From a virus (taxonomy: Duplodnaviria > Heunggongvirae > Uroviricota > Caudoviricetes): a stretch of DNA of 12,819 bases. The DNA is taken from positions 1 through 12,819 of IMG/VR virus record IMGVR_UViG_2778260995_000007; one strand, written 5' to 3'. The notes under the pieces were generated by a model. The model did no database searches. It was given only the letters and a program-made list of their open reading frames with translations, and was not told the origin of the DNA. Below, one piece after another: positions 1-12,819 of the stretch. Position numbers and translations under genes: made by a program. How positions within the stretch are numbered: position 1 is the first letter of the stretch; the number at the start of each line of letters is the position of its first letter.

Positions 1-117
1 GTTTCGCCGATTGTTTCCGGTGAGGTTATCCGTTCCCGTGGCGGCTCCACCTCTGAATTTACGCCGGGATATGTCAAACCCAAGCACTTAGCATGGCTTT
101 CTGAGGCTTTCGTGTAG
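1..117 (+). pseudogene. E: 5' fragment of lambda-type major capsid protein gene E; frame enters from upstream of the window, is broken after codons ...GYVKPKH (nt 87) and runs into element sequence to a TAG at 115-117
   Basis: Frame 1 translates VSPIVSGEVIRSRGGSTSEFTPGYVKPKH, which matches my recollection of lambda gpE; the continuation ...KPKHEVNPQMTLRRL is found at 10733 onward. Confidence 0.8.
77..86. repeat. Left copy of 10-bp direct repeat AACCCAAGCA (putative attL core)
   Basis: Identical 10-mer at 10731-10740; flanking bases differ on both sides. Confidence 0.6.
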
Positions 118-249
118 TTGCTGGTTTTTACACTTAATCTTTTGATAATAAAGAATAAGTTTATCTGGTGCTTTCACTGAATTTTCCTCGTTATCTGTGT
201 GTTGCAATCATCTCTGTATTGCAGCTTGTATTGCTTTTTGGGGCTAAAA

Positions 250-1485
250 ATGGCTGGCGAGAACAAACTGAGCGACAAAGCGCTTAAAGGATATCTGGGG
301 AAACCCAGAGAAAAGCAGATCACCATTGCTGATGGAAAGGGGCTTTCTATTCGTGTGAGTACTAAAGGGGCTGTGAGCTTTGTTTTCTTCTACAGGTTAG
401 CAGGTGGCCGGGCTGCTCCGGTCTGGCTAACGTTGGGTAAATATCCTGATATGTCACTCAAACAGGCAAGGGAAAAGCGCGACGAGTGCCGTGGTTGGTT
501 GGCTGACAAACGTGATCCGCGTATCCAGATAAAGATTCAGGCTGAAGAACGCTTAAAGCCGGTCACAGTGGAGGATGCACTAAATTACTGGTATGAAAAT
601 TACTGTAAGGTGCGTCGTAAAACTCATGCTGTAACGCTTGGCAGATTTCGAAAGCATATCTTTCCCTATATCGGTCATTTGCCCGTAAATGACACTCACC
701 TATATGAATGGCTGGACTGTTTTGACCGAATTAAACGTAATGCACCAGTTATGGCGGCGTATGTTTTTTCTGACACTAAATTAGCTCTTCGTTTTTGTCG
801 GGTACGCCAGTACGCGACGTGTGATGCTTTAAAGGATTTGCGCATGAGTGATGTGGGGCAGATTGCAGGTAAGCGGGATCGGGTTCTGGATGAAGCCGAA
901 CTCGGCCAGCTCTGGAAGGCAATTTTTGTCGAGCCTGATTTAAAACTAATGTCTGAATACACGCGAAAAATGTTTGTGCTTTGTACACTATTTGGATGTC
1001 GAATGAGTGAAGCCCGATTATCAGAATGGAGCGAATGGGATCTCGAAAGTTGGGTTTGGACTGTACCAAAAGATCACTCAAAAACTGGTGTTGAAATCGT
1101 CAGACCAGTACCTGAAATTCTACGACAGTGGGTAACGGATGTTCACGAAGAGACAAAACATACTGGTTATGTGCTGGGAAGTCTGCGAATTAGAGAAAGC
1201 GTAAGCAAGATTGGGGGGAAAATCGGTAAACGTTTGGGCCATGAAAAACAATGGTCACTACACGACCTTAGAAGAACGCTATCTACTCATCTAAGTGATC
1301 TCGGTGTTGAATTTTATGTAGTAGAACAACTGTTAGGCCATGCGCTACCTGGCGTGGCAGGTGTTTACAACCGGAGTAAGTTTATGGCTAAAAAACTGGA
1401 TGCTCTGGAACTCTGGACTACATATCTCAATAGCATCGCAGGTGCTGATTCAAAAGTGACAATCCTCAAACAAAAGGCTGGTTAA
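250..1485 (+). CDS. int: Tyrosine site-specific integrase, P4-type
   Basis: ORF 199-1485; start placed at ATG 250 (MAGENKLSDKALKGYL...). N-terminal region and C-terminal ...HDLRRT...LLGHA... motifs are typical of P4-family integrases; sits next to the attL repeat. Confidence 0.88.
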   Translation: MAGENKLSDKALKGYLGKPREKQITIADGKGLSIRVSTKGAVSFVFFYRLAGGRAAPVWLTLGKYPDMSLKQAREKRDECRGWLADKRDPRIQIKIQAEERLKPVTVEDALNYWYENYCKVRRKTHAVTLGRFRKHIFPYIGHLPVNDTHLYEWLDCFDRIKRNAPVMAAYVFSDTKLALRFCRVRQYATCDALKDLRMSDVGQIAGKRDRVLDEAELGQLWKAIFVEPDLKLMSEYTRKMFVLCTLFGCRMSEARLSEWSEWDLESWVWTVPKDHSKTGVEIVRPVPEILRQWVTDVHEETKHTGYVLGSLRIRESVSKIGGKIGKRLGHEKQWSLHDLRRTLSTHLSDLGVEFYVVEQLLGHALPGVAGVYNRSKFMAKKLDALELWTTYLNSIAGADSKVTILKQKAG

Positions 1486-1486
1486 C

Positions 1487-1714
1487 ATGAAAAAAATGGC
1501 AATTGTTGATAAAAAGGGTCTGGAGTACATTCCTAACATTGATCGTATGATCCGTGAGAAAGAATGTCGGGAGCTAACCACTCTTGCGAACAGCACACGC
1601 TGGAAGCTGGAGAAGGAAGGAAAATTTCCTAAGCGGATCAAGATTGGCGCTACTGCGGTAGCTTACCGTCTCTCCGAAGTTCAGGCATGGATTAGGGGGG
1701 AATGGCGGACATAA
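1487..1714 (+). CDS. alpA: AlpA-family HTH regulator / excisionase-like protein
   Basis: 75 aa; ...LTTLANSTRWKLEKEGKFPKRIKIGATAVAYRLSEVQAWI is a typical AlpA (Phage_AlpA) HTH; ATG lies 1 nt after the int stop, suggesting translational coupling. Confidence 0.8.
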   Translation: MKKMAIVDKKGLEYIPNIDRMIREKECRELTTLANSTRWKLEKEGKFPKRIKIGATAVAYRLSEVQAWIRGEWRT

Positions 1715-1750
1715 ATGTTGTAGTAAATTGTTATATAAAAGGGTGTAAGC

Positions 1751-2626
1751 ATGGCTACTCGAAAAAAAAATAGCGTAGAAATGAAAACTGTTTGTGAACT
1801 AATCATATCAAGAGATGATATGAAAGATAAAATTCAAGACAGAATTCAAAAAGGATTATTACTCCTACAGAAAAGCATAAATAACAATAGTGACTTGGAG
1901 CTGTTTAATGCTGATTACAGGAAATGGAGTGATTTTAATGCTGAGCTACTGAAGCGTAGTTTCACAAATGATGATTTCAAAGAAGAATATGAAGGTGGGG
2001 CATTTGGTGTTATTTCATTGTACGAGACTTCCTTGGGAGAAAAAATCAGTGAGGCTACGCGTAAACTCCAGAGTAAGATAAGAAAACTAGAGTCGATTAT
2101 GGAGCGACTGGAGTTAATTCCTATATCTTCCAAAGTTGTTGAAGAAAATATTGAAGTACCTCAGAGTTCAGCGGTAAAAACCAAAAAAGTATTCATTGTT
2201 CATGGAAGAGATGAAGTATCAAAAACCAACTTAGAAGTGTTTTTAAGAGAAATTGGCTTAGAACCTATTGTTCTCCATAGGCAAGCTGATGTAGGTCAGA
2301 CAGTGATTGAGAAATTTGAAGCAAATAGTGATGTTGGTTTCGCATTCATTCTTCTCACACCTGATGAGATCGCTTATTTATTTCCGCAAGACTCTTTACC
2401 TGATAATGAAAGAGAAAAGGAGTTACGTGCACGACCAAATGTAATGTTTGAATTTGGTTATTTCGTAGGGAAATTAGGTCGTTCTAAGGTTTGTTGTCTA
2501 TACACAGGTGATGTAGTGATTCCAAGTGATTTGAATGGTCTTATTTATAAAAAATTCAATTCTTCTATTGAAGAAGTAGCATATAGCATTATTAAAGACT
2601 TGCGAGCTACTGGTTACGCAGTTTAG
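1751..2626 (+). CDS. Cargo protein with an N-terminal helical region and a C-terminal TIR-like domain (resembles the COG4271/CAP12-type TIR-like fold); candidate anti-phage effector
   Basis: 291-aa ORF, visibly AT-rich compared with neighbours. C-terminal KKVFIVHGRDE...FAFILLTPDE...RARPNVMFEFGYFVGKLGRSKV matches the motif pattern I recall for TIR-like proteins. Not confirmed by search. Confidence 0.6.
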   Translation: MATRKKNSVEMKTVCELIISRDDMKDKIQDRIQKGLLLLQKSINNNSDLELFNADYRKWSDFNAELLKRSFTNDDFKEEYEGGAFGVISLYETSLGEKISEATRKLQSKIRKLESIMERLELIPISSKVVEENIEVPQSSAVKTKKVFIVHGRDEVSKTNLEVFLREIGLEPIVLHRQADVGQTVIEKFEANSDVGFAFILLTPDEIAYLFPQDSLPDNEREKELRARPNVMFEFGYFVGKLGRSKVCCLYTGDVVIPSDLNGLIYKKFNSSIEEVAYSIIKDLRATGYAV

Positions 2627-2655
2627 TAAATTCTTTGAACTAAAAATCTGCATAG

Positions 2656-2688
2656 ATATAGAGCCATTCGAGATAAATGGCTCTATAT
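2656..2688. terminator. Perfect 13-bp inverted repeat (ATATAGAGCCATT / AATGGCTCTATAT, 7-nt loop) between convergent genes; possible bidirectional terminator or protein-binding palindrome
   Basis: Seen directly; lies 30 nt after the stop of the 1751-2626 gene and 14 nt after the stop of the minus-strand RHH ORF. AT-rich stem, and a T-run on the minus strand only after a 9-nt spacer, so terminator function is uncertain. Confidence 0.4.
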
Positions 2689-2701
2689 GAAATATTATCT
2701 G

Positions 2702-2881
2702 TTAAATTTTGACTTCATATCCGCGTTGCTGTAGTTCTTTGCGAATAATCCTTTTAATCCAGGCTGCTAAAGATTCGTCTCCATCTACTTGCTGTGCTTG
2801 CTCCATCAACTCCCTCAACTCAGGATCTAACCGAAACTGGAACGGAGGATTACCACGTCTTTGATTTTTGTGTGTTGACAC
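2702..2881 (-). CDS. Small Arc/MetJ-like ribbon-helix-helix DNA-binding protein (59 aa from GTG 2881; a 34-aa version from ATG 2806 would lack the ribbon strand)
   Basis: Minus-strand translation VSTHKNQRRGNPPFQFRLDPELRELMEQAQQVDGDESLAAWIKRIIRKELQQRGYEVKI has an Arc-like strand-helix-helix pattern. Below the length cut-off of the supplied ORF track; start codon uncertain. Confidence 0.4.
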   Translation of the reverse strand: MSTHKNQRRGNPPFQFRLDPELRELMEQAQQVDGDESLAAWIKRIIRKELQQRGYEVKI

Positions 2882-2929
2882 GTCAATTACACCCGATGTA
2901 ATGTGTTAATGTGTGATGACACATTACAT
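2875..2929. promoter_or_regulatory. Promoter/operator region: plus-strand TTGACA (2875-2880) - 16 nt - TGTAAT (2897-2902); 11-bp inverted repeat ATGTAATGTGT (2896-2906) / ACACATTACAT (2919-2929) plus tandem TAATGTGT (2899-2906, 2907-2914)
   Basis: Seen directly in the intergenic region between the minus-strand RHH ORF and the plus-strand operon starting at 3012; palindrome arms overlap the candidate -10 elements. Confidence 0.4.
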
Positions 2930-2948
2930 ACGTGTTTAGGAAAATGCA

Positions 2949-2981
2949 ACGCCTCGACGTGCGGGAACACCATCGAGGCGT
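2949..2981 (+). promoter_or_regulatory. GC-rich hairpin in the 5' leader of the replication operon (9-bp stem ACGCCTCGA / TCGAGGCGT, 15-nt loop); no downstream U-tract
   Basis: Perfect inverted repeat seen directly, 30 nt upstream of ATG 3012. Confidence 0.3.
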
Positions 2982-3011
2982 CTAACCAACCCGTTAAATG
3001 AGGTAACGATT

Positions 3012-3377
3012 ATGGCTGGAACACAGCATACCCAAACTCACCCTAAATTTATATACACCTTTCTGGCACTACACCACGACCGCATGGCAGATGGAGCAAC
3101 TACGGTACATGTAGCCGCTGACACGCTGGTTGATGCCCGCAAGATGGTTAAGGAGATGGGCTATACTGCGGCTTTCTGGAAAGGGCGTGAAGAAAACACG
3201 CTGTTTATTCAGAAATGCGAAAACAATTTCATCTGGCGTTTTATCGCCCTGAGCACCGCACAACCACGCGTAATACACATCGAGGCCGCCAGCGAACAGG
3301 AAGCCCGGCTGCAATCCCCAACTGGCTACGTGATGATATTCGCCGCCCGTATTCGTCAGGAGGTGTGCCATGAATGA
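3012..3377 (+). CDS. Hypothetical protein, first gene of replication-module operon
   Basis: 121-aa ORF with GAGGT RBS 6 nt upstream; stop overlaps the next start. Confidence 0.65.
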   Translation: MAGTQHTQTHPKFIYTFLALHHDRMADGATTVHVAADTLVDARKMVKEMGYTAAFWKGREENTLFIQKCENNFIWRFIALSTAQPRVIHIEAASEQEARLQSPTGYVMIFAARIRQEVCHE

Positions 3378-3594
3378 TCTTTATTTTAAAGTGCTGACAC
3401 ATGCTGAAAACGCGCTCGTTTGTGGCAAAAATATGCGAGAAATCTTATCAACCTGGCTTGATGGGACAACAAATGCGGAACACGATGAACGGGATGCTAA
3501 TTTAGCTGGAGCGTTAATTACGTTACTTGATCCTGTCATCAAAGAGCTGGATGAAGCTATAAAAATACACGACCAGAGCTATACCGGAGAATAA
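3370..3594 (+). CDS. Hypothetical small protein
   Basis: 74-aa ORF; AGGAGG 4 nt upstream of ATG; 8-nt overlap with the upstream ORF. Confidence 0.6.
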   Translation: MNDLYFKVLTHAENALVCGKNMREILSTWLDGTTNAEHDERDANLAGALITLLDPVIKELDEAIKIHDQSYTGE

Positions 3595-3597
3595 AAA

Positions 3598-3885
3598 ATG
3601 AAAAATAAATTTTCTGGCTTTATTGCCAGCGGTCAAACTCATTCAAAAATCAGCCTTGGGGATATTTTCAAAGACAGCTATGGCTATCGGGTAAAGATTA
3701 TTTCGGTTGATGATCGTCGTGTCTCTTATTTGCGTGATGGTTATGATTTTGAATGTGTTATGCCGCGTCAGCAGTTCGAAAGAGATTTCATTCTGGTAAA
3801 AAATTGCAAGACAGATAATCAGAGGCGTGCCGCAGGCTATATCCGCAAAATTCGGGCAATGTTAGTTGCCGGAGGTAACAAATGA
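3598..3885 (+). CDS. Hypothetical small protein
   Basis: 95-aa ORF packed tightly between neighbours; stop overlaps the primase start (ATGA). Confidence 0.6.
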   Translation: MKNKFSGFIASGQTHSKISLGDIFKDSYGYRVKIISVDDRRVSYLRDGYDFECVMPRQQFERDFILVKNCKTDNQRRAAGYIRKIRAMLVAGGNK

Positions 3886-5633
3886 AACGTGCTCCGAACT
3901 TAAAATACCAACCGCGCGACAAAATGACAGAAGTCATCATTTTTGCTGGCAGTGATGCCTGGAGCCATGCAAAAGAATGGAATGAATGGGCGGGTAAGCA
4001 TATTGCCGCCGACGATGTGCCGCCTGTCGTGCTGGCTGATGAGCAACTGAAAAATATCACCGATTACCGGATCATTGATGAAGATCGTCAGTGTGTGCGT
4101 GTTTACCGCGCAGGACATATCACAGAGCACAGCATGACGCAGATTGTTACGTTACTGGCTGTGGCTGGAGTGAAGACCGTACACGAATACGCGGGGATTA
4201 CTGACACCAGCCCAGTGGATTTATCCGAGCAGTTGCCGCGACTCAAAGAGGAATGCGAGCGTGGGGAAAGTCTGGTGCTTAATCTTCCGACGAAGCAAAA
4301 GGCGCAACTTTCACAGATGGCAGACAGTGAACGTGCACAACTACTTGCCGATCGCTTTGATGGTGTGTGTGTTCATGCAGAAAGTGAAATCGTCCACGTA
4401 TGGCGCGGCGGGGTATGGTGTCCGGTCAGCACAATGGAGCTGAGCCGCGAAATGGTGGCGATCTATTCAGAGCACAGGGCCACGTTCAGCAAACGTGTAA
4501 TCAATAACGCCGTGGAAGCGTTAAAAGTTATTGCCGACCCCATGGGGGAGCCGTCCGGTGATTTGCTACCGTTCACTAATGGTGTGCTTAACCTGAAAAC
4601 GGGGGAATTTTCTCCGCACTCGCCGGAGCACTGGAGCACCACGCACAATGGCATTGAGTACACGCCACCAGTAGCAGGGGAAAACATCCGCGATAATGCG
4701 CCAAATTTCCATAAATGGCTTGAACATGCTGCAAGAAAAGACCCGCGCAAGATGATGCGTATATGTGCCGCGTTATACATGATTATGGCGAACCGCTACG
4801 ACTGGCAGATGTTCATTGAGGCCACCGGAGACGGGGGAAGCGGTAAGAGTACATTTACCCATATTGCCACCCTGCTTGCTGGCAAACAGAACACCGTAAG
4901 CGCGGAGATGACATCACTCGATGATGCAGGAGGGCGCGCGCAGGTTGTCGGGAGTCGTCTTATCGTCCTTGCCGATCAGCCGAAATATACGGGGGAAGGC
5001 ACGGGCATCAAGAAAATCACGGGAGGCGATCCCGTTGAAATTAACCCGAAATATGAGAAGCGATTCACGACGATAATAAGGGCGGTGGTACTGGCAACCA
5101 ATAACGACCCGATGATCTTTACCGAACGAGCCGGAGGTGTGTCACGCCGTCGGGTGATTTTCCGGTTCGACAACATTGTAAGGGAGGACGAAAAAGACAA
5201 GGAATTACCGGAAAAGATAGCGGCAGAAATCCCCGTAATTATCCGCCGCTTGCTGGCTAATTTTGCTGACCCTGAAAAGGCACGGGCTTTATTACTGGAA
5301 CAGCGTGACGGTGATGAAGCTCTGGCAATAAAGCAGCAAACGGATCCGGTTGTTGAGCTTTGCGCGGCGCTGGAGTTTCTGGAGGAAGCTCGTGGGCTAA
5401 TGATGGGCGGTGGTGGTGACACCGTGAAGTACACGACCAGAAACAGCCTTTACCGTGTCTATATGGCCTTCATGGCATACACAGGAAAGGGGAAATGTTT
5501 GAGCGTGAATGAGTTCGGAAAGGCTATGAGGTCAGCGGCGAAAGTTTACGGATATGAATATATTACGCGAAAAGTTAAGGGAGTCACGCAGACCAACGCA
5601 ACGACTACTGATGATTGCGATGCGTTTTTATAA
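3882..5633 (+). CDS. Replication initiator: primase-associated SF3 helicase-type protein (P4 alpha C-terminal / D5-like family; the pri-rep of PICI-type satellites)
   Basis: 583 aa; Walker A GDGGSGKST and a downstream hydrophobic strand ending in D (LIVLAD) typical of P4-family primase-helicase C-terminal domains; GGAGG RBS; followed by an iteron array. Confidence 0.85.
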   Translation: MKRAPNLKYQPRDKMTEVIIFAGSDAWSHAKEWNEWAGKHIAADDVPPVVLADEQLKNITDYRIIDEDRQCVRVYRAGHITEHSMTQIVTLLAVAGVKTVHEYAGITDTSPVDLSEQLPRLKEECERGESLVLNLPTKQKAQLSQMADSERAQLLADRFDGVCVHAESEIVHVWRGGVWCPVSTMELSREMVAIYSEHRATFSKRVINNAVEALKVIADPMGEPSGDLLPFTNGVLNLKTGEFSPHSPEHWSTTHNGIEYTPPVAGENIRDNAPNFHKWLEHAARKDPRKMMRICAALYMIMANRYDWQMFIEATGDGGSGKSTFTHIATLLAGKQNTVSAEMTSLDDAGGRAQVVGSRLIVLADQPKYTGEGTGIKKITGGDPVEINPKYEKRFTTIIRAVVLATNNDPMIFTERAGGVSRRRVIFRFDNIVREDEKDKELPEKIAAEIPVIIRRLLANFADPEKARALLLEQRDGDEALAIKQQTDPVVELCAALEFLEEARGLMMGGGGDTVKYTTRNSLYRVYMAFMAYTGKGKCLSVNEFGKAMRSAAKVYGYEYITRKVKGVTQTNATTTDDCDAFL

Positions 5634-5646
5634 AAAATGGCAATGG

Positions 5647-5875
5647 TTATCTACCTTGTCTACCTGACTGAAAGAAAATACTTTTATTTCAATGTATTAA
5701 TGCAGGTAGATAACTATTTTTCACTGTCTACCTGTTATCTACCTTATCTACCCATTTTTGTAGACAGGTAAGGAGACGGGTAGAGATGAGGTAGACAGCT
5801 ATTTGGGGCTGTCTACCTCCCTGAAACCCGCGCCATTACTGGCCTGATAACTAATCAGGTAGACAAGGTAGACAA
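5647..5875. repeat. Iteron array, putative replication origin: about 12 copies of GGTAGA(C/T)A in both orientations around an AT-rich stretch (5667-5700)
   Basis: Seen directly: TTATCTACC/TTGTCTACC tandem at 5647-5664; GGTAGATAA at 5705-5713; three copies at 5725-5753; GGTAGACAA x2 at 5858-5875, and others. Confidence 0.7.
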
Positions 5876-5922
5876 GGTGGTGGTGCACAAAAAACTTTTT
5901 AAACGAGGGGGTAAAAATAAAA

Positions 5923-6165
5923 ATGCACACATCAGGAAAACTGAACAAACATATAAAGCCACATTACCGCGCCCTTGATATGGCTGAACACTGGCTAAGG
6001 GTGGCGATTAAGGCAATAGACCGCAACGCCGGGGAAGGATACGCGAAAGCACATCCCGAACTGATAAGCGCATTCATGACAACGGCGGCTGCAAACTTTG
6101 CCACGCTGACCGAACGGGAGATTGCCGAAGCGGAGGAAGTGACAACCATCAATATTAAGTCCTGA
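5923..6165 (+). CDS. Hypothetical protein
   Basis: 80-aa ORF with a G-rich RBS upstream; no recognisable motif. Confidence 0.5.
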   Translation: MHTSGKLNKHIKPHYRALDMAEHWLRVAIKAIDRNAGEGYAKAHPELISAFMTTAAANFATLTEREIAEAEEVTTINIKS

Positions 6166-6176
6166 GAGCAGGCAGC

Positions 6177-6626
6177 ATGACGGCGCAAATAGCAGCTTAC
6201 GGGCGGCTGGTGGACGAGCCACAGGTAAAACATACCAGCAAGGGAACACCCATGACACTGGCACGGATGGCGGTATCTTTGCCATGCAGCCAGGCAGATG
6301 ACGGAACGGCGACGATGTGGTTATCTGTGCTGGCGTTTGGCAGACAAGCCGACGCGCTGGCAAAGCATCACAAAGGCGAACTCCTGAGCGTGGCGGGTAA
6401 TATGCAGGTGAGCCAGTGGACTGGACAGAACGGTGAAACGCGGCAGGGCTGGCAGGTTATCGCAGACAGCGTAATCAGTGCGCGAACGGTGCGACCGGGC
6501 GGCAAAAAAGGTCAACAGGGTCAGGCTACTGACGCACTGAACAGAGCAAAACAACAGGCAGATCAGCAAGGAAGCCATCCACCAGTGGGAGATAATGAAC
6601 AATGGGGAGATGATATTCCGTTTTAA
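6177..6626 (+). CDS. Single-stranded DNA-binding protein-like (OB fold) with canonical acidic C-terminal tip ...DDIPF
   Basis: 149 aa; OB-fold pattern (...WLSVLAFGRQAD...KGELLSVAGNMQVSQWTGQNGETRQGWQV...) followed by a Gly/Gln-rich linker and C-terminal DDIPF, as in bacterial SSB. Confidence 0.7.
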   Translation: MTAQIAAYGRLVDEPQVKHTSKGTPMTLARMAVSLPCSQADDGTATMWLSVLAFGRQADALAKHHKGELLSVAGNMQVSQWTGQNGETRQGWQVIADSVISARTVRPGGKKGQQGQATDALNRAKQQADQQGSHPPVGDNEQWGDDIPF

Positions 6627-6645
6627 ATATTGCCAATAAAAAAAG

Positions 6646-6670
6646 GCCGGAAAAAAATAAATTTTCCGGC
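6646..6670. terminator. Hairpin (9-bp stem GCCGGAAAA / TTTTCCGGC, 7-nt loop) downstream of the SSB-like gene; A-tract on the 5' side only
   Basis: Seen directly; a T-run follows the stem only when read on the minus strand, so plus-strand termination is uncertain. Confidence 0.35.
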
Positions 6671-6844
6671 ATGCTACATAAATCCCGACCAAAGGGAGTG
6701 AAGATATTAACACTAATTATCCGCGCTGAAGTTGTTATCCCAAAACTTTATACAACATTGCACTCGGTTGCATGTATTCGCATGACAAATATCGGTGATA
6801 GCATATATCCACAATTATTTTTAATGAATGCAAAGAGGATGCGT

Positions 6845-7885
6845 ATGGTCGATTTATATTCGCCTACCCAGCTTGTACAGGTGGTTAATGCTGTAGATGT
6901 ACAAAAACAACTAAATGCGTTGTTTACCAGTTTGTTTTTTACTCGCTCTGTAATGTTTGAATCGCGCGATATTATTCTTGATACAATCGACGATCCAAAT
7001 ATCCCAATTGCAGCGTTTTGTTCTCCTATGGTGGGTAGTAAAGTTTCACGTGACGAAGGGTACGAATCAAAAACAATTCGTCCAGGCTATATGAAGCCGA
7101 AAAGCAGCATTGATCCAAATAAGTTAGCTGTGCGCCCTGCTGGTGTATCACCTGAGCAATACAATGCTTTTGGAGCGCGTAATATTAAAGTTAAACAGGC
7201 GATTGTAAATCAGGCTAAAGCTATTCGTGCACGTATTGAATGGCTTGCCGTTCAGGCAATCACAACGGGGAAAAATATCATTGAGGGCGATGGTATTGAA
7301 CGTTATGAACTGGACTGGAATATAAAACCACAAAATATTATCACGCAGTCTGGCGGTGCTGAGTGGTCAGGTAAGGATAAAGAAACTTTTGATCCAAATG
7401 ATGATATTGAGAGCTACGCAGAATTTAGTGAGGGCGTCACTAATATCATCATTATGGGCGGTAATGTATGGAAGAAATACCGTTCATTCAGAGCGATAAA
7501 AGAGGCTCTGGATACCCGCCGTGGTTCTAATTCCGAACTGGAAACGGCCCTTAAAGACCTTGGTGATTCGGTGAGTTTTAAAGGGTATATGGGCGATGTT
7601 GCGATTGTTGTTTACAGCGGACGTTATACCGACGAGGACGGAACTGAAAAACATTTCCTTGATCCTGATTTGATGGTGCTTGGCAATACGGCTCTTCAGG
7701 GGATTGTCGCCTATGGCGGTATTCAGGATCCGGAGCTAACCCGAATGGGGCTGACTAAAGCCGAACTTGCACCGAAAAACTATATTGTGCCTGGTGATCC
7801 GGCTATTGAGTACGTACAAACGCACTCTGCACCACAGCCAATACCGGCCCGCATCAATCGTTTTGTTACCGTTCGCATTGGCTAA
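6845..7885 (+). CDS. Major capsid protein, diverged homologue of lambda gpE, encoded by the element
   Basis: Start moved to ATG 6845 (AAGAGG RBS), giving 346 aa, close to lambda E in size. Shares blocks with lambda E as I recall it: PGYMKPK, ITQSGGAEW, LDTRRGSNSELETA, GDVAIVVYSG, VLGNT, GDPA (roughly 40-50% identity by eye). Confidence 0.8.
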   Translation: MVDLYSPTQLVQVVNAVDVQKQLNALFTSLFFTRSVMFESRDIILDTIDDPNIPIAAFCSPMVGSKVSRDEGYESKTIRPGYMKPKSSIDPNKLAVRPAGVSPEQYNAFGARNIKVKQAIVNQAKAIRARIEWLAVQAITTGKNIIEGDGIERYELDWNIKPQNIITQSGGAEWSGKDKETFDPNDDIESYAEFSEGVTNIIIMGGNVWKKYRSFRAIKEALDTRRGSNSELETALKDLGDSVSFKGYMGDVAIVVYSGRYTDEDGTEKHFLDPDLMVLGNTALQGIVAYGGIQDPELTRMGLTKAELAPKNYIVPGDPAIEYVQTHSAPQPIPARINRFVTVRIG

Positions 7886-7894
7886 GGGGGAGCA

Positions 7895-8236
7895 ATGGCT
7901 ACTCATTACACTGAACTCATGTCTGGCACTGAAGCACTGGTTACTACGCTGGGGATATTTTCAGCCAATAAAGGGGTAATACCTGCGTTTACGCCACTGA
8001 TGCAGGAAGATGCAACTGGTGCGCTAGTGGTATGGGATGGAACGAGCGCAGGCAAAGCGGTTTATGTTTCCGCTGTACAAATCGACACAGCGAAAAAAAC
8101 ACAGGCACAGGTTTATAAGACAGGTGTTTTAAATGTTGATGCTCTGAACTGGCCTGAGTCTGTAAGAGAACTGTCGGCAAAGGTTGCCGCGTTTGTTGGC
8201 TCAGGTATTTCTGTTCAGCCGCTGGCTCGTGTGTAA
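7895..8236 (+). CDS. Head decoration protein, homologue of lambda gpD
   Basis: 113 aa; ...PAFTPLMQEDATGALVVWDGTSAGKAV...YKTGVLNVDALNWPE...AAFVGSGISV parallels lambda D (...PAMTPLM...LVAWDGTTDGAAV...YKSGTFRYEDVLWPE...TAFAGTAISIV); AAGGGGGA RBS. Confidence 0.8.
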   Translation: MATHYTELMSGTEALVTTLGIFSANKGVIPAFTPLMQEDATGALVVWDGTSAGKAVYVSAVQIDTAKKTQAQVYKTGVLNVDALNWPESVRELSAKVAAFVGSGISVQPLARV

Positions 8237-8247
8237 AGGGGGATACA

Positions 8248-8631
8248 ATGCAGAATCATTACAATGACCTTAAGCCAATTGCCGAAATGATGTACCCGAA
8301 TCCAGCTGTAGAGGAATTAAAAGCTATCGCTGACAAAATGTGTTTAAGCGAGCGCCTTGTTGATATGAATCAGGTGATGGAAATTACAACCCTGAGTCGG
8401 CGTACACTGCTAAACCTTGAGGCTAGTGGAGAGTTCCCGGAGCGTGTGCAGGTTACGGAAGGGCGTAAGGCCTGGTATTTAAGTGAAGTGATCGACTGGA
8501 TAAATAATATTCCTCGCGCTTCTGAATATTGCCGCGTACCTGTCCCAAAAAAGCCAGATGCGGCGCTATGCCTCAAGATTGAGCGTGTACGCCGCAATGC
8601 ACGGGATGGTCGCTATAAGCTGATTGGTTGA
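8248..8631 (+). CDS. AlpA/MerR-like HTH DNA-binding protein, larger than a typical AlpA, function unknown
   Basis: 127 aa; central ...MEITTLSRRTLLNLEASGEFPERVQVTEGRKAWYLSEVIDWI is an AlpA-type HTH; AAAGGGGGA RBS; follows the capsid genes. Confidence 0.65.
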   Translation: MQNHYNDLKPIAEMMYPNPAVEELKAIADKMCLSERLVDMNQVMEITTLSRRTLLNLEASGEFPERVQVTEGRKAWYLSEVIDWINNIPRASEYCRVPVPKKPDAALCLKIERVRRNARDGRYKLIG

Positions 8632-9287
8632 TGAAATTAGGGCCCGCTCTGGCTGGCGGGTCCTTTCCGGCGATCCAGAACGTTACGGGGCGTCAGGCGC
8701 GCAGTTTTTTGCTATTTATGAAAATTTTCCGGTTTAAAGCGTTTCCGTTCTTCTTCGCCGTAACTTAATGTTTTTATTAGAAACACCCACTAAAAAGAAA
8801 GGAAACAACAGATGCTGAAAACGTGTTTTTTGGACAGTGTCGTTTCCTTTCTCTGGTTTTGTTGCCGTCTGTCGCGGTCTGTCACCAGAAAAAACTCTCA
8901 CCCCTGCGTTGAATCAGGCTCTACACTAAAGTAGACAATAACGCGCCGCTGGCTTCGCTTCATGGTCGTGGCCTACTTCTGCACTATCGCAACAGCCTTA
9001 TGCGCCCTGCTGGTGAGCTATTGAGTAAGCAGAATGCGGATTACAAGGCATCCTATGCGTTTTGTGGCGTACCGAACACAACCGCTCAGGTGAATCCCGT
9101 TTTGTTAGTTTATGGAAAGAGCCGTATCGGGGGCGCAATCATTTCTGCGTGGATCTATGTCGAAGACAAAATGTGGTATGCGCATCTGGCCGGAGGGTGA
9201 GCAATTTATCAGGGAAGTATCATCTCTACAGGTTTAAGACAACCAGAAGAAGTTATCGAGCAAGTTGGGTATGAAGATTTTCCTATA

Positions 9288-9551
9288 ATGGTAACGTTTA
9301 AGATTCCGGTGTTTGGTATCGTGGTGGGAACATGGAGGAATGTGGATCCGGCAAAATCATTCGGTTTTTTCCGTCAATTCATTGTGGACTGGGATTAGGA
9401 GAGTGTGCTTACTGACCAAGCTCTTAAGGGATATTTATATGCTTACCTAGGCACTGATGAAGCACTTTTCAAATGCTGGGCGGATTATATGAAATGCAGA
9501 TTGGCAGAAAATGAACATAGGTTTAAAAAATATACTGAGACTGTAAACTGA
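9288..9551 (+). pseudogene. Possible decayed ORF: 87-codon frame broken by an in-frame TAG at 9396-9398, no RBS
   Basis: Translation MVTFKIPVFGIVVGTWRNVDPAKSFGFFRQFIVDWD*ESVLTDQALKGYLYAYLGTDEALFKCWADYMKCRLAENEHRFKKYTETVN*; sits in a ~1 kb stretch (8632-9676) without convincing genes. Confidence 0.2.
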
Positions 9552-9676
9552 GTTCGCTGTGATTTAATTCGTGATTTAATCGAAGAGAGGAAAGTGAAAT
9601 GAGCCCTGCTAAGGGCCGCATCTTTATATTGAACGACTTATCACTAGATTAGGAAATCACTTCGAATGATATGCTG

Positions 9677-10549
9677 TTACTTTATAATTCCGTCTTTGAA
9701 AACCATTTTCTTAGCGCCAGAGGTATAGTTTTGAACAATTCCCAATAACTCTTTTGAATAGTCAATTGTAGAAATTGTCTCTGCCGGTTTGTTATATGTG
9801 TAATTAAGTGAGTAACCTCTCAGCTTTAATCTTAAATCACCATTTTCTAACTCTAAATAAGCGTCGGTTAGCTCTTCTTTGTAAGTGCCTGCACCATATT
9901 GGATGTTAGGTACTCTCGCGGATAAGGAGTTTTCTAAGTCGCAGAGAGAATACTTGTCGTGGGTAGTATTATCAACGATGAATATTTGGTTGTTAAGTAG
10001 TCGACTGAACCTTGAATTTAAATCATCTATGTTTAAATTTTTTTGCGACTCAAGCCAGCTTGCATCTATCATTGGTGAGAATGCAGTTATTCTGGGGGGA
10101 GTTATCGCGACGATATTCAATTGAATAGTTTTGATAAGTGGTGTTCCATCTGGCGCGCGCCAGTCTTCGTTATCAGCTTCACGAACTATTAGAAGGTCAA
10201 TTTTATATTGTTCGGCTTTTTTTTGAGCCCCACTTTGATACCCTGTTTTGGTTGCATAAATTAGTCTTAGGCCGGGAATATCTGCTGTTTTTCCGATGAA
10301 TGCGTCAATTTTCTCGATACTTACACTTGAAGCGTAGTCTTTGCATTCGATTACGGTCTTATATTCATAACCTCCTAAGTTAAATTCCCAATACACATCG
10401 AATTGCCTAGTTATGCCGTTTTTATCTACGATTTTTTTGTTTACTTCAACGGTGATGTTTTTCAAGTGAGAAATTTTCTCAGCTTGTATCAAGCTTTGAT
10501 GAATCGCCCCAACAAATTCCTCATAATCTCTGCCAGTGTTTTTAGTCAT
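9677..10549 (-). CDS. Mrr-type restriction-endonuclease-like (PD-(D/E)xK) protein with an uncharacterised C-terminal domain; candidate defence nuclease
   Basis: Start placed at ATG 10549 (GAGG RBS 8 nt upstream; the track's 10567 start is TTG), 290 aa. N-terminal half shows a PD-(D/E)xK pattern (...QFDVYWEF...YKTVIECKDY...SIEKIDAFIGK...LIYATKTGYQSGA...). Visibly AT-rich. Confidence 0.75.
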   Translation of the reverse strand: MTKNTGRDYEEFVGAIHQSLIQAEKISHLKNITVEVNKKIVDKNGITRQFDVYWEFNLGGYEYKTVIECKDYASSVSIEKIDAFIGKTADIPGLRLIYATKTGYQSGAQKKAEQYKIDLLIVREADNEDWRAPDGTPLIKTIQLNIVAITPPRITAFSPMIDASWLESQKNLNIDDLNSRFSRLLNNQIFIVDNTTHDKYSLCDLENSLSARVPNIQYGAGTYKEELTDAYLELENGDLRLKLRGYSLNYTYNKPAETISTIDYSKELLGIVQNYTSGAKKMVFKDGIIK

Positions 10550-10730
10550 TGTGCAGCCTCGTTCCAATCATCAGAGTAACGGTTAAATATTTATACACCT
10601 TGAATCTATGAACAGATTTATGTCACTTCACGCTGTATTGCACGCTGTATTGCATTAAGGAGGAATAATGTCGATTTGATGATGTTTTATCAAGTAAATT
10701 CATTCACATCCTTTCATATTTGACTCATGT

Positions 10731-10740
10731 AACCCAAGCA
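10731..10740. repeat. Right copy of 10-bp direct repeat AACCCAAGCA (putative attR core)
   Basis: Identical to 77-86; the E reading frame resumes directly here (CCC AAG CAT GAG GTG = P K H E V). Confidence 0.6.
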
Positions 10741-11521
10741 TGAGGTGAATCCGCAGATGACCCTGCGTCGCCTGCCGGATGAAGATCCGCAGAATCTGGC
10801 GGACCCAGCTTACCGCCGCCGTCGCATCATCATGCAGAACATGCGTGACGAAGAGCTGGCCATTGCTCAGGTCGAAGAGATGCAGGCAGTTTCTGCCGTG
10901 CTTAAGGGCAAATACACCATGACCGGTGAAGCCTTCGATCCGGTTGAGGTGGATATGGGCCGCAGTGCGGCGAATAACATCACGCAGTCCGGCGGCACGG
11001 AGTGGAGCAAGCGTGACAAGTCCACGTATGACCCGACCGACGATATCGAAGCCTACGCGCTGAACGCCAGCGGTGTGGTGAATATCATCGTGTTTGATCC
11101 GAAAGGCTGGGCGCTGTTCCGTTCCTTCAAAGCCGTCAAGGAGAAGCTGGATACCCGTCGTGGCTCTAATTCCGAGCTGGAGACAGCGGTGAAAGACCTG
11201 GGTAAAGCGGTGTCCTATAAGGGGATGTATGGCGATGTTGCCATCGTCGTGTATTCCGGACAGTACGTGGAAAACGGTGTCAAAAAGAACTTCCTGCCGG
11301 ACAACACGATGGTGCTGGGGAACACTCAGGCACGCGGTCTGCGTACCTATGGCTGTATTCAGGATTCGGACGCACAGCGCGAAGGCATTAACGCATCTGC
11401 CCGTTACCCGAAAAACTGGGTGACCACCGGCGATCCGGCGCGTGAGTTCACCATGATTCAGTCAGCACCGCTGATGCTGCTGGCTGACCCTGATGAGTTC
11501 GTGTCCGTACAACTGGCGTAA
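10733..11521 (+). pseudogene. E: 3' fragment of lambda-type major capsid protein gene E (from ...KPKHEVNPQMTLRRL to the C-terminus)
   Basis: Translation matches my recollection of the lambda gpE C-terminal ~260 aa almost residue for residue; an in-frame TAA at 10730-10732 closes the frame upstream. Confidence 0.85.
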
Positions 11522-11523
11522 TC

Positions 11524-11550
11524 ATGGCCCTTCGGGGCCATTTTCTCTCT
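11524..11550 (+). terminator. Rho-independent terminator-like hairpin after E (ATGGCCC-TTCG-GGGCCAT followed by a T-rich tract)
   Basis: 7-bp GC-rich stem with TTCG tetraloop and TTTTCTCTCT tail, seen directly 3 nt after the E stop. Confidence 0.6.
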
Positions 11551-11562
11551 GTGGAGGAGTCC

Positions 11563-11961
11563 ATGACGAAAGATGAACTGATTGCCCGCCTCCGCTCGTT
11601 GGGTGAGCAACTGAACCGTGATGTCAGCCTGACGGGGACGAAAGAAGAACTGGCGCTCCGTGTGGCAGAGCTGGAAGAGGAGCTTGATGACACGGATGAC
11701 ACTGCCGGTCAGGACACCCCTCTCAGCCCGGAAAATGTGCTGACCGGGCATGAAAATGAGGCTGTATCAGCGCAGCCGGATACCGTGATTCAGGATGCGG
11801 CTGATCTGGTCACCGTTGTGGCACTGGTGACGCTGCATACTGATGCACTTCACGCCATCCGGGATGAACCTGTGGCATTTGTGATGCCGGGAACGGCGTT
11901 CCGTGTCTCTGCCGGTGTGGCAACCGAAATGACAGAACGCGGCCTGGCCAGAATGCAATAA
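11563..11961 (+). CDS. FI: Lambda-type head assembly/DNA packaging protein FI
   Basis: Start at ATG 11563 with GGAGGAG RBS (the track's ORF begins upstream at 11524); MTKDELIARLRSLGEQLNRDVSLTGTKEELALRVAEL... matches lambda gpFI as I recall it. Confidence 0.88.
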   Translation: MTKDELIARLRSLGEQLNRDVSLTGTKEELALRVAELEEELDDTDDTAGQDTPLSPENVLTGHENEAVSAQPDTVIQDAADLVTVVALVTLHTDALHAIRDEPVAFVMPGTAFRVSAGVATEMTERGLARMQ

Positions 11962-11972
11962 CGGGAGGCGCT

Positions 11973-12326
11973 GTGGCTGATTTCGATAACCTGTTCGATG
12001 CTGCCATTGCCCGCGCCGATGAAACGATACGCGGGTACATGGGAACGTCAGCCACCATTACATCCGGTGAGCAGTCCGGTGCTGTGATACGTGGTGTTTT
12101 TGATGACCCTGAAAATATCAGCTATGCCGGACAGGGCGTGCGCGTTGAAGGCTCCAGCCCGTCCCTGTTTGTCCGGACTGATGAGGTGCGGCAGCTGCGG
12201 CGTGGAGACACGCTGACCATCGGTGAGGAAAACTTCTGGATAGACCGGGTTTCGCCGGATGATGGCGGAAGTTGTCATCTCTGGCTTGGACGGGGCGTAC
12301 CGCCTGCCGTTAACCGTCGCCGCTGA
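11973..12326 (+). CDS. FII: Lambda-type head-tail joining protein FII
   Basis: GTG start with GGGAGG RBS; MADFDNLFDAAIARADETIRGYMGTSATITSGEQSGAVIRGVFDDPENISYAGQGVRVEG... matches lambda gpFII. Confidence 0.88.
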   Translation: MADFDNLFDAAIARADETIRGYMGTSATITSGEQSGAVIRGVFDDPENISYAGQGVRVEGSSPSLFVRTDEVRQLRRGDTLTIGEENFWIDRVSPDDGGSCHLWLGRGVPPAVNRRR

Positions 12327-12337
12327 AAGGGGGATGT

Positions 12338-12819
12338 ATGGCCATAAAAGGTCTTGAGCAGGCCGTTGAAAACCTCAGCCGTATCAGCAAAACGGCGGTG
12401 CCCGGTGCCGCCGCAATGGCCATTAACCGCGTTGCGTCATCCGCGATATCGCAGTCGGCGTCACAGGTTGCCCGAGAGACAAAGGTACGCCGGAAACTGG
12501 TAAAGGAAAGGGCCATGCTGAAAAGGGCCACGGTCAAAAATCCGCAGGCCAGAATCAAAGTTAACCGGGGGGATTTGCCCGTAATAAAGCTGGGTAACGC
12601 GCGGGTTGTCCTGTCCCGACGCAGGCGTCGTAAAAAGGGGCAGCGTTCATCCCTGAAAGGTGGCGGCAGCGTGCTTGTGGTGGGAAACCGTCGTATTCCC
12701 GGCGCGTTTATTCAGCAACTGAAAAATGGCAGGTGGCATGTTATGCAGCGTGTGGCCGGGAAAAACCGTTACCCCATTGATGTGGTGAAAATCCCGATGG
12801 CGGTGCCGCTGACCACGGC
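12338..12819 (+). CDS. Z: Lambda-type tail protein Z, 5' partial (runs off the window end)
   Basis: ATG 12338 with AAAGGGGGA RBS; MAIKGLEQAVENLSRISKTAVPGAAAMAINRVASSAISQ... matches lambda gpZ; no stop before the window end. Confidence 0.85.
   Translation, partial: MAIKGLEQAVENLSRISKTAVPGAAAMAINRVASSAISQSASQVARETKVRRKLVKERAMLKRATVKNPQARIKVNRGDLPVIKLGNARVVLSRRRRRKKGQRSSLKGGGSVLVVGNRRIPGAFIQQLKNGRWHVMQRVAGKNRYPIDVVKIPMAVPLTT

Follow-up and report, generated by a model that had tools for sequence, protein, structure and literature searches.

A two-part iteron array behind rep as the probable replication origin of a helper-embedded phage-inducible chromosomal island

The DNA analyzed here (the window) comprises positions 1 to 12,819 of the IMG/VR virus record IMGVR_UViG_2778260995_000007 (Caudoviricetes) and is an EcCICFT073-like Gram-negative phage-inducible chromosomal island (PICI), helper-embedded in the capsid gene of a lambdoid prophage. 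Directly behind its replication gene rep there is a dense array of short repeats (iterons) at 5648-5874. Together with its flanks (approximately 5634-5903) this array is very probably (about 0.88 by our estimate) the vegetative replication origin of the island, fired by the upstream Rep protein. An origin recognized by the upstream initiator had already been proposed in a sequence-only reading of this DNA, and four lines of evidence now speak in favor of it, namely homology with the ori of EcCICFT073, the match of Rep with P4 alpha and the structure 1KA8, similar arrays behind most related rep genes and the joint change of iterons and Rep C-terminal domains. The same four lines, including the tested EcCICFT073 segment (PMC6092414), support the further suggestion of that reading that this region is an autonomous replication module with a defined cis element. 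The array is thus an allele of an origin type that was already described and tested, in a type of island that was already described as well.

The iteron array and its two halves

The motif GGTAGAYA occurs ten times as an exact match in the window and all ten copies (10/10) are located within 5648-5874, with no exact copy found elsewhere in these 12.8 kb. In dinucleotide-preserving shuffles it appeared 0.42 times on average and at most 4 times, so that none of 200 shuffled sequences (0/200) reached ten copies. Two additional copies with one mismatch each, TGTAGACA at 5759-5766 and GGTAGAGA at 5779-5786, lie within the span of the array. In total there are 12 copies of the iteron (TGTCTACC/TATCTACC) in 227 bp, six on each strand, in agreement with the initial count of about twelve copies of an 8-9 bp motif in both orientations within some 230 bp. 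Iterons on the minus strand start at 5648, 5657, 5725, 5736, 5745 and 5810 and those on the plus strand at 5705, 5759, 5779, 5790, 5858 and 5867. The array begins 15 nt past the stop codon (5633) of the open reading frame (ORF) 3882-5633. It is located in a non-coding gap of 289 bp (5634-5922) between this ORF and the ORF 5923-6165, both on the + strand, and no ORF of at least 50 amino acids spans this gap.

The array is composed of two inverted six-iteron halves with equal spacing, and only one of them contains an A+T-rich (AT) spacer. Read in rep direction and from core to core, the complete signature is '- 9 - 46 + 22 - 11 - 9 - 32 + 11 + 22 - 46 + 9 +'. The 8-mers of the left half start at 5648, 5657, 5705, 5725 and 5736, which corresponds to spacings of 9/48/20/11, and on the opposite strand the right half (5874, 5865, 5817, 5797, 5786) shows 9/48/20/11 again. 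Each half contains six sites in a 2+1+3 arrangement. Half A (5648-5752), which resembles P4 ori, consists of the iterons 5648-5655 (-), 5657-5664 (-), 5705-5712 (+), 5725-5732 (-), 5736-5743 (-) and 5745-5752 (-). Half B (5759-5874), which resembles P4 crr, consists of 5759-5766 (+) and 5779-5786 (+), i.e., the two one-mismatch copies, followed by 5790-5797 (+), 5810-5817 (-), 5858-5865 (+) and 5867-5874 (+). The outer tandem pairs form a 21-nt inverted repeat (5647-5667 / 5855-5875) with 95% complementarity.

An AT-rich stretch around which the repeats are grouped was also part of the sequence-only reading. The stretch is real but not central, since it belongs to the left half, where it separates copy 2 from copy 3. 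This spacer of half A (5665-5704) is the presumed DNA-unwinding element, judged by its AT content, its stability minimum and a conserved TCA...TTA motif. It has 40 nt with 77.5% A+T, its richest 30-mer (5671-5700) reaches 87% A+T, and in duplex stability it forms a local minimum (z = 2.4 when compared with every 40-mer in the window). Across lineages its TCA and TA columns do not vary. The TCA...TTA motif forms a site similar to that of integration host factor (IHF) at 5687-5699 with one mismatch. As an IHF site it was rejected, with one-mismatch matches not enriched in the window (10 found versus 15.5 expected); the conservation of the TCA...TTA columns leaves it as a weak lead.

The corresponding spacer of the right half (5818-5857) also has 40 nt and contains about 50% G+C. 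It includes a conserved non-iteron block, CTGAAACCCGCGCCATTACTGGC at 5821-5843, that is nearly the same in the islands of CFT073 and O121 and in approximately 30 relatives from IMG/VR. Its T.AAA.CC..G columns are invariant, and the CTGAAA of this region is found in both units of P4 crr as well. On the 3' side of the right iteron pair an A6-C-T5 tract follows at 5889-5900, and an A(4-8)CT(4-6) tract in this place is kept in all lineages examined, both P4 crr units included. A conserved hairpin in the spacer of half B, as a possible priming signal, was considered and dismissed: folding z values were inconsistent (-3.0 in the window, -1.4 in CFT073 and +1.15 in O121), and for the related loci L065 and L067 the coordinates used in this test fell outside the palindromes of those elements. 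Neither a promoter nor a terminator was found in the array or the gap, and the sole promoter-like site, at 6252, is at chance level. It is therefore probable that transcripts of the rep operon extend across the origin. When all of the window was scanned with Rfam, no structured RNA turned up in 5634-5922.

Relation to the origins of EcCICFT073, P4 and other replicons

The 289-bp gap has matches in 567 of 5,426 complete Escherichia coli genomes, in 75 of them with at least 99% identity. In strain CFT073 the match (75% identity over 98% of 5634-5922) lies behind pri-rep in EcCICFT073, the island located between roxA and phoQ. Measured from the rep stop codon, the GGTAGA cores at offsets 17, 26, 72, 94, 105 and 114 are identical in the window and in CFT073, and the remaining five cores agree within 1 nt. 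A rep-ori segment of EcCICFT073 maintains a temperature-sensitive plasmid at the restrictive temperature; in this test the rep mutant fails and maintenance is strongly reduced by ori deletion (Fillol-Salom et al. 2018, ISME J, PMC6092414). The array presented here shares with that ori the location directly 3' of pri-rep, the motif GGTAGAYA, the offsets and the AT-rich spacer; tandem pair (5648/5657), AT spacer (5665-5704) and inverted iterons (from 5705 onward) follow each other in the same manner. The gene order DUF4222, rep, ori, small ORF, ssb, capsid and decoration is likewise common to both islands. They differ in the N-terminal 130 residues of Rep and in the spacers, which are diverged, in their cargo genes and in their location, i.e., a prophage capsid gene here versus a chromosomal site in CFT073. 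In a comparison of 8 diverged origins of the GGTAGA class, 50 of 66 positions in the iteron cores were invariant versus 23 of 223 other positions. The far higher invariance of the cores shows that the repeats themselves are under selection.

In P4 the alpha protein binds type 1 repeats in both ori and crr. With the signature '- 9 - 46 + 22 - 11 - 9 -' half A corresponds to P4 ori in order, orientation and spacing, the type 1 repeats of the latter reading '- 10 - 45 + 20 - 11 - 10 -' in alpha direction (NC_001609 annotation). Both consist of two iterons, an A+T-rich spacer of approximately 40 nt, one inverted iteron and three further iterons. Half A, P4 ori and seven other elements can be aligned in register, and in this alignment the T.T..A columns of the six iterons are invariant, as is a 'CA' within the AT spacer. 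The repeat itself is not that of P4, whose type 1 repeat is TGTTCACC, but GGTAGACA here and GGTGAACA there differ only at positions 4-5. Immediately behind the alpha gene, in the position held here by the array, P4 has its crr with two units of 120 bp. Each unit is composed of GGTGAACA, inverted iterons, CTGAAA with a spacer of approximately 35 nt, a tandem pair 9 bp apart and A8CT6. Half B shares the '- 46 + 9 +' part with both units, whereas its inner iterons are oriented differently. There are further differences. In P4 ori and crr are 4.5 kb apart and crr is duplicated, whereas here one of each is fused into a dyad of 230 bp. P4 has the terminator t-alpha, whereas no terminator separates rep and array in the island. 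The helicase and origin-binding domain of Rep are homologous with P4 alpha (41%; 1KA8), whereas the primase domain of alpha (aa 1-320) is missing.

Two relatives with Rep proteins 78-79% identical (L065 and L067) show the reverse arrangement, with the crr-like half first and the ori-like half approximately 70 nt later (2827-3140). The spacer of their crr-like half also holds a clear palindrome, CTGAAaCCCTTGcgccaCAAGGGatTTCAG. The order A-B in the window, B-A in L065 and L067 and the split arrangement with duplicated B in P4 suggest that the halves behave as separable modules. It is conceivable, at somewhat less than even odds, that such a PICI origin is a dyad of two inverted six-iteron half-origins which match P4 ori and crr, are separable evolutionary modules and receive one Rep hexamer each. 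A literature search revealed no paper naming crr, PICI and ori together; as this search was incomplete, the correspondence of P4 ori and crr with a PICI ori is probably unreported and not certainly new.

Classical iteron plasmids (Rep_3/RepA, pi, TrfA) carry tandem direct iterons of 17-22 bp and DnaA boxes, and their Rep protein is of the WH1-WH2 type. The array of the window is unlike them in the length of its repeats (8-9 bp), in their occurrence in both orientations and in an initiator that is a superfamily 3 (SF3) helicase. Large T antigen of SV40 and papillomavirus E1 are SF3 helicases with an origin-binding domain as well, and they assemble as double hexamers on origins with short inverted recognition repeats, dyad symmetry and an AT-rich element on one side. 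The likeness of the array to these viral origins may be taken as an analogy, the origin sequences being unrelated and the folds of the origin-binding domains different. Among the Staphylococcus aureus pathogenicity islands (SaPIs), Rep proteins are self-loading hexamers that bind iterons with a C-terminal winged-helix domain, and the origins comprise 6-12 iterons around an AT-rich region on which two hexamers are proposed to load (PMC9371898). Like SaPI origins, the array lies directly downstream of rep. Its 12 iterons include an AT-rich region between them, and this region is flanked left and right by two or more iterons facing opposite ways, here in the order - -, AT, +. The SaPI iterons are, however, only 5-6 nt long and unrelated in sequence, their hosts are Gram-positive, and the Rep proteins cannot be aligned outside the ATPase core.

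Rep and the reading of the iterons

Rep (3882-5633, + strand) has 583 amino acids and is composed of an alpha/beta domain (aa 1-136), D5_N, an SF3 helicase core (DUF5906) and a C-terminal winged-helix origin-binding domain; matches in Pfam are D5_N, DUF5906 and Pox_D5. Its residues 137-578 are 41% identical with residues 321-762 of P4 alpha (E 1e-116), and its ATPase core matches the SaPI5 primase-helicase 7OLA (PriRep5, E 5e-15). With Pri-Rep of EcCICFT073 the identity is 80%, and the differences are found mostly in the first 130 residues. The C-terminal domain (aa 487-578, encoded at 5340-5615, + strand) is the presumed reader of the iterons. It matches the crystal structure of the origin-binding winged-helix domain of P4 alpha (PDB 1KA8, E 2.2e-7) and Pox_D5 (E 4e-5).

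The upstream gene had been called a primase-helicase from its sequence. Its role as helicase and initiator is supported by the Pfam matches and the similarity with P4 alpha, but the primase part found no support in the searches with aa 1-136. By BLASTP this region (window 3882-4289) has no similarity to residues 1-320 of P4 alpha, which hold the primase domain, or to a relative of 794 aa from Morganella. In Pfam it has no match even at E values up to 10, and it falls in phrog_2850, a PHROG of unknown function. AlphaFold2 modelled aa 1-125 confidently as a four-stranded alpha/beta domain (predicted local distance difference test, pLDDT, 70-91), whereas the rest of the model was poor (mean 45, shallow alignment). 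A Foldseek comparison of the N-terminal model with the PDB returned nothing significant (best E 0.1). BLASTP, Pfam, PHROGs and the combination of AlphaFold2 and Foldseek thus gave no support for a primase domain in aa 1-136, and this assignment was abandoned. The N-terminal domain is also the most divergent part between island alleles, with about 50% identity versus more than 90% elsewhere. As no primase domain is detectable, either a host primase or this N-terminal domain must supply priming.

Relatives of Rep were gathered from IMG/VR (80 loci) and from a genome set with one member per species. Most of the diversity comes from IMG/VR; a contig scan with the single protein gave only 3 loci, the first large protein search yielded only near-identical proteins of E. 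coli, and a phage collection contained nothing that matched the array at the DNA level. In the 300 nt behind rep at least six copies of one 6-mer are present in 58 of 61 distinct relatives, whereas background windows of the same loci contain 3.0 on average and 7 at most, and 0.36% of them reach six. The general layout is kept despite changes of the iteron in CFT073, O121, L057, L073, L075, L079, Serratia, Morganella and L086.

The repeat sequence varies together with the class of the C-terminal domain. In the window and in CFT073 a domain ending with '...QTN..xF(L/I)' goes along with GGTAGAYA. Within the same class the O121-type proteins, in which N is changed to A and G to S in 'LNVNDFGKAM', are accompanied by GGTAGAGG, and the loci L073-77 have GGTAGATAA. 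Among the P4-like C-terminal domains, that of Serratia, ending with '...EDWLP', is paired with GTGAACAG, those of Morganella and L086 with ATGAACA, that of P4 with GGTGAACA and those of L083-85 and L087 with GGTATACA. In general, iterons of the TGAACA or GTATAC type are found with domains ending in '...EDWLP' and those of the GGTAGA type with '...QTN..xF(L/I)'; the TGTTCA type is used by the relatives in Serratia and Morganella and by L086. A narrow case is given by L086 and the other members of L083-87, since their Rep proteins are nearly the same. In the C-terminal domain they differ by Y-to-R and A-to-K in 'PPHYPR.YLYHAYLAFLE', at the residue after a conserved F and in the wing, and at the same array positions the iteron of L086 is GGTGTTCAT versus GGTATACAT. 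Such tracking of the domain class by the iteron sequence is the pattern expected if this domain reads the repeats. The number of independent switches is small, so that the joint change of iterons and domain is no statistical proof.

Proposed initiation, alternative explanations and island context

From the homology with P4 alpha, the SaPI Reps and EcCICFT073, the latter with genetic evidence, we infer iteron binding, spacer melting and self-loading of Rep as the best-supported course. The C-terminal winged-helix domain of Rep would bind the 8-9 bp iterons (A/G)GGTAGA(C/T)A. After occupying the tandem pair and the inverted sites in half A, Rep would melt the 40-nt AT spacer (5665-5704) and assemble around the DNA as a self-loading hexameric SF3 helicase. 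Half B most likely loads a second hexamer in opposite orientation, or it may be a partner in cis as crr is for P4. With two inverted halves two opposed helicases could be loaded, and replication would then be bidirectional. The SSB encoded downstream in the island would coat the opened strands.

Several points weigh against an origin of this kind. Rep-dependent replication was shown only for the homologue in EcCICFT073, and after induction of a related helper-embedded island (11capE) the evidence of replication following excision was weak or inconsistent (PMC10111431). Rep is devoid of the primase domain that makes P4 alpha self-sufficient. The window also has 40-mers of even lower stability than the AT spacer. 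The assignment of one hexamer to each six-iteron half is drawn from counting and symmetry. Finally, three Rep relatives (L080, L081 and L082) have no iterons within 1.5 kb on either side of the gene. Their C-terminal domains are P4-like and are followed by a strong terminator hairpin (2854-2900). This means that an origin beside rep is not universal, and that theirs must lie elsewhere, like the ori of P4.

The same architecture could also be read in such a way that half A (5648-5752) with its AT spacer is the origin on its own, and half B (5759-5903) is a crr-like auxiliary in cis that is likewise bound by Rep, stimulates or regulates initiation by looping or pairing and loads no second helicase. 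We consider this a possible, though rather unlikely, division of roles. It would agree with P4, where crr follows directly after alpha and is a separate region required in cis (GenBank annotation), and with the '- 45/46 + 9 +' skeleton, CTGAAA and A-tract/T-tract that half B and the crr units have in common. Also the spacer of half B with its G+C content would be poor for melting, and the halves are separable and permutable as seen in L065 and L067. On the other hand, the spacing of half B on the opposite strand repeats exactly that of half A (9/48/20/11), as for a mirror-image loading site, and the inner iterons of crr are oriented unlike those of half B.

Initiation by Rep at the array also has to be weighed against explanations in which no replication starts there. 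Iterons in many replicons have a dual role in origin function and control, and the repeats could mainly serve titration or handcuffing of Rep, i.e., the control of copy number and of incompatibility between co-resident islands, with initiation elsewhere. Cross-talk would be possible as the window and CFT073-type islands share GGTAGAYA despite their different N-terminal 130 residues of Rep. We regard this as improbable, because no other iteron copy is present in the window, the homologous segment of EcCICFT073 is needed for replication and the layout equals that of the mapped P4 ori. Still less credit is given to the possibility that AlpA or another island regulator uses the repeats as operators to control the genes from 5923 on. 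The gene right behind the array does have a strong ribosome-binding site, and no terminator separates the array from rep, but the array contains no promoter-like site, the same layout occurs at P4 ori in another gene context, the repeat sequence varies with the C-terminal domain of Rep rather than with the AlpA genes, and in L065 and L067 the two halves have changed places with respect to the downstream gene. That the array is a functionless chance cluster or a set of decayed repeats was rejected and can be practically neglected. Apart from the two degenerate copies among the twelve nothing speaks for it, whereas the shuffles never gave ten copies, 75 E. coli genomes carry the array with 99% identity or more and the iteron cores are invariant across diverged origins in which the spacers vary.

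The genes around the origin, assigned with Pfam and NCBIfam, are those of a Gram-negative PICI, a type of element with a length of about 10-15 kb, genes in one direction, a P4-type integrase, AlpA and pri-rep. An integrase, two AlpA proteins, an Icd-like protein, DUF4222, Rep, SSB, capsid E and decoration D are encoded, all on the + strand. In detail, the P4-type tyrosine integrase (199-1485) is followed by AlpA (1487-1714), a TIR/CAP12 effector-like cargo gene (1751-2626), the Icd-like gene (3012-3377) and DUF4222 (3598-3885). Directly 3' of the origin there is a small gene for 80 aa (5923-6165, + strand; phrog_1231, E 8.5e-46) with a strong ribosome-binding site, and its position is kept in the islands of CFT073 and O121. 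The gene of the single-stranded DNA-binding protein (SSB; 6177-6626, + strand; Pfam SSB E 2.3e-14, phrog_44 E 1e-36) belongs to the replication module. Downstream of it are a lambda-E-type major capsid gene (6671-7885), a D-type decoration gene (7895-8236), the second AlpA (8248-8631) and an Mrr-like nuclease (9677-10567, - strand). The capsid and decoration genes (6671-8236) are the island's own, in an element that interrupts the capsid gene of its helper, and the same gene pair is carried by EcCICFT073. Two cargo genes resemble anti-phage defence: the one at 1751-2626 encodes a CAP12/Pycsar-type TIR effector domain (E 1.5e-33), and the one at 9677-10567 (-) encodes 296 aa in which an Mrr-type restriction endonuclease domain is weakly matched (E 1e-4). 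In the island copy of E. coli strain 10 the first cargo position is occupied by a different gene, coding for a DUF2971 protein.

The embedding in a prophage is visible at both ends of the window. Bases 1-86 match a phage major capsid gene present in 3,207 of 5,426 E. coli genomes and represent its N-terminal fragment. At 10745-11521 only the C-terminal part of capsid E (profile positions 94-328) is encoded, and the next genes are FI and one for head-tail attachment. In the locus L001 fragments of the corresponding prophage capsid gene are found at 5715-5960 and 17121-17909, and E. coli strain 10 has a prophage capsid gene that is likewise split by a related island. The junction between capsid and integrase genes was detected in 175 of 5,426 E. 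coli genomes, and the configuration of such a helper-embedded PICI (the '11capE' type) is already published (PMC10111431). The integrase gene is closely preceded by a sequence, TATCAAAAGATTA at 135-147 (- strand), that fits the IHF consensus perfectly; it lies close to the left attachment junction, as expected for the arm of an att site. The only Rfam match in the window, SymR antitoxin RNA at 2945-3017 (- strand), is below threshold (24 bits versus a gathering value of 61, E 0.61) and probably due to chance. A packaging (cos) site was considered too and discarded, with no 12-mer in the window resembling lambda cosN.

The array would mark the cis-acting origin of a widespread phage satellite of E. 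coli, and in this respect it mainly confirms the annotation. A minimal replicon would consist of rep and 5634-5905 and could be of use for vectors or for tracking the replication of the satellite. A further notable point is that this Rep has no recognizable primase domain. Switches of specificity seem to occur in nature when a few residues of the winged-helix domain and the iterons change jointly, so that iteron recognition is directly testable. If the dyad of two half-origins with one hexamer each is true, it would be a bacterial counterpart of the double-hexamer origins of SF3 helicases from eukaryotic viruses and would offer a simple system for asking what crr does. The correspondence links PICI origins with the long-studied and poorly understood pair of ori and crr in P4, which may be of modest wider interest.

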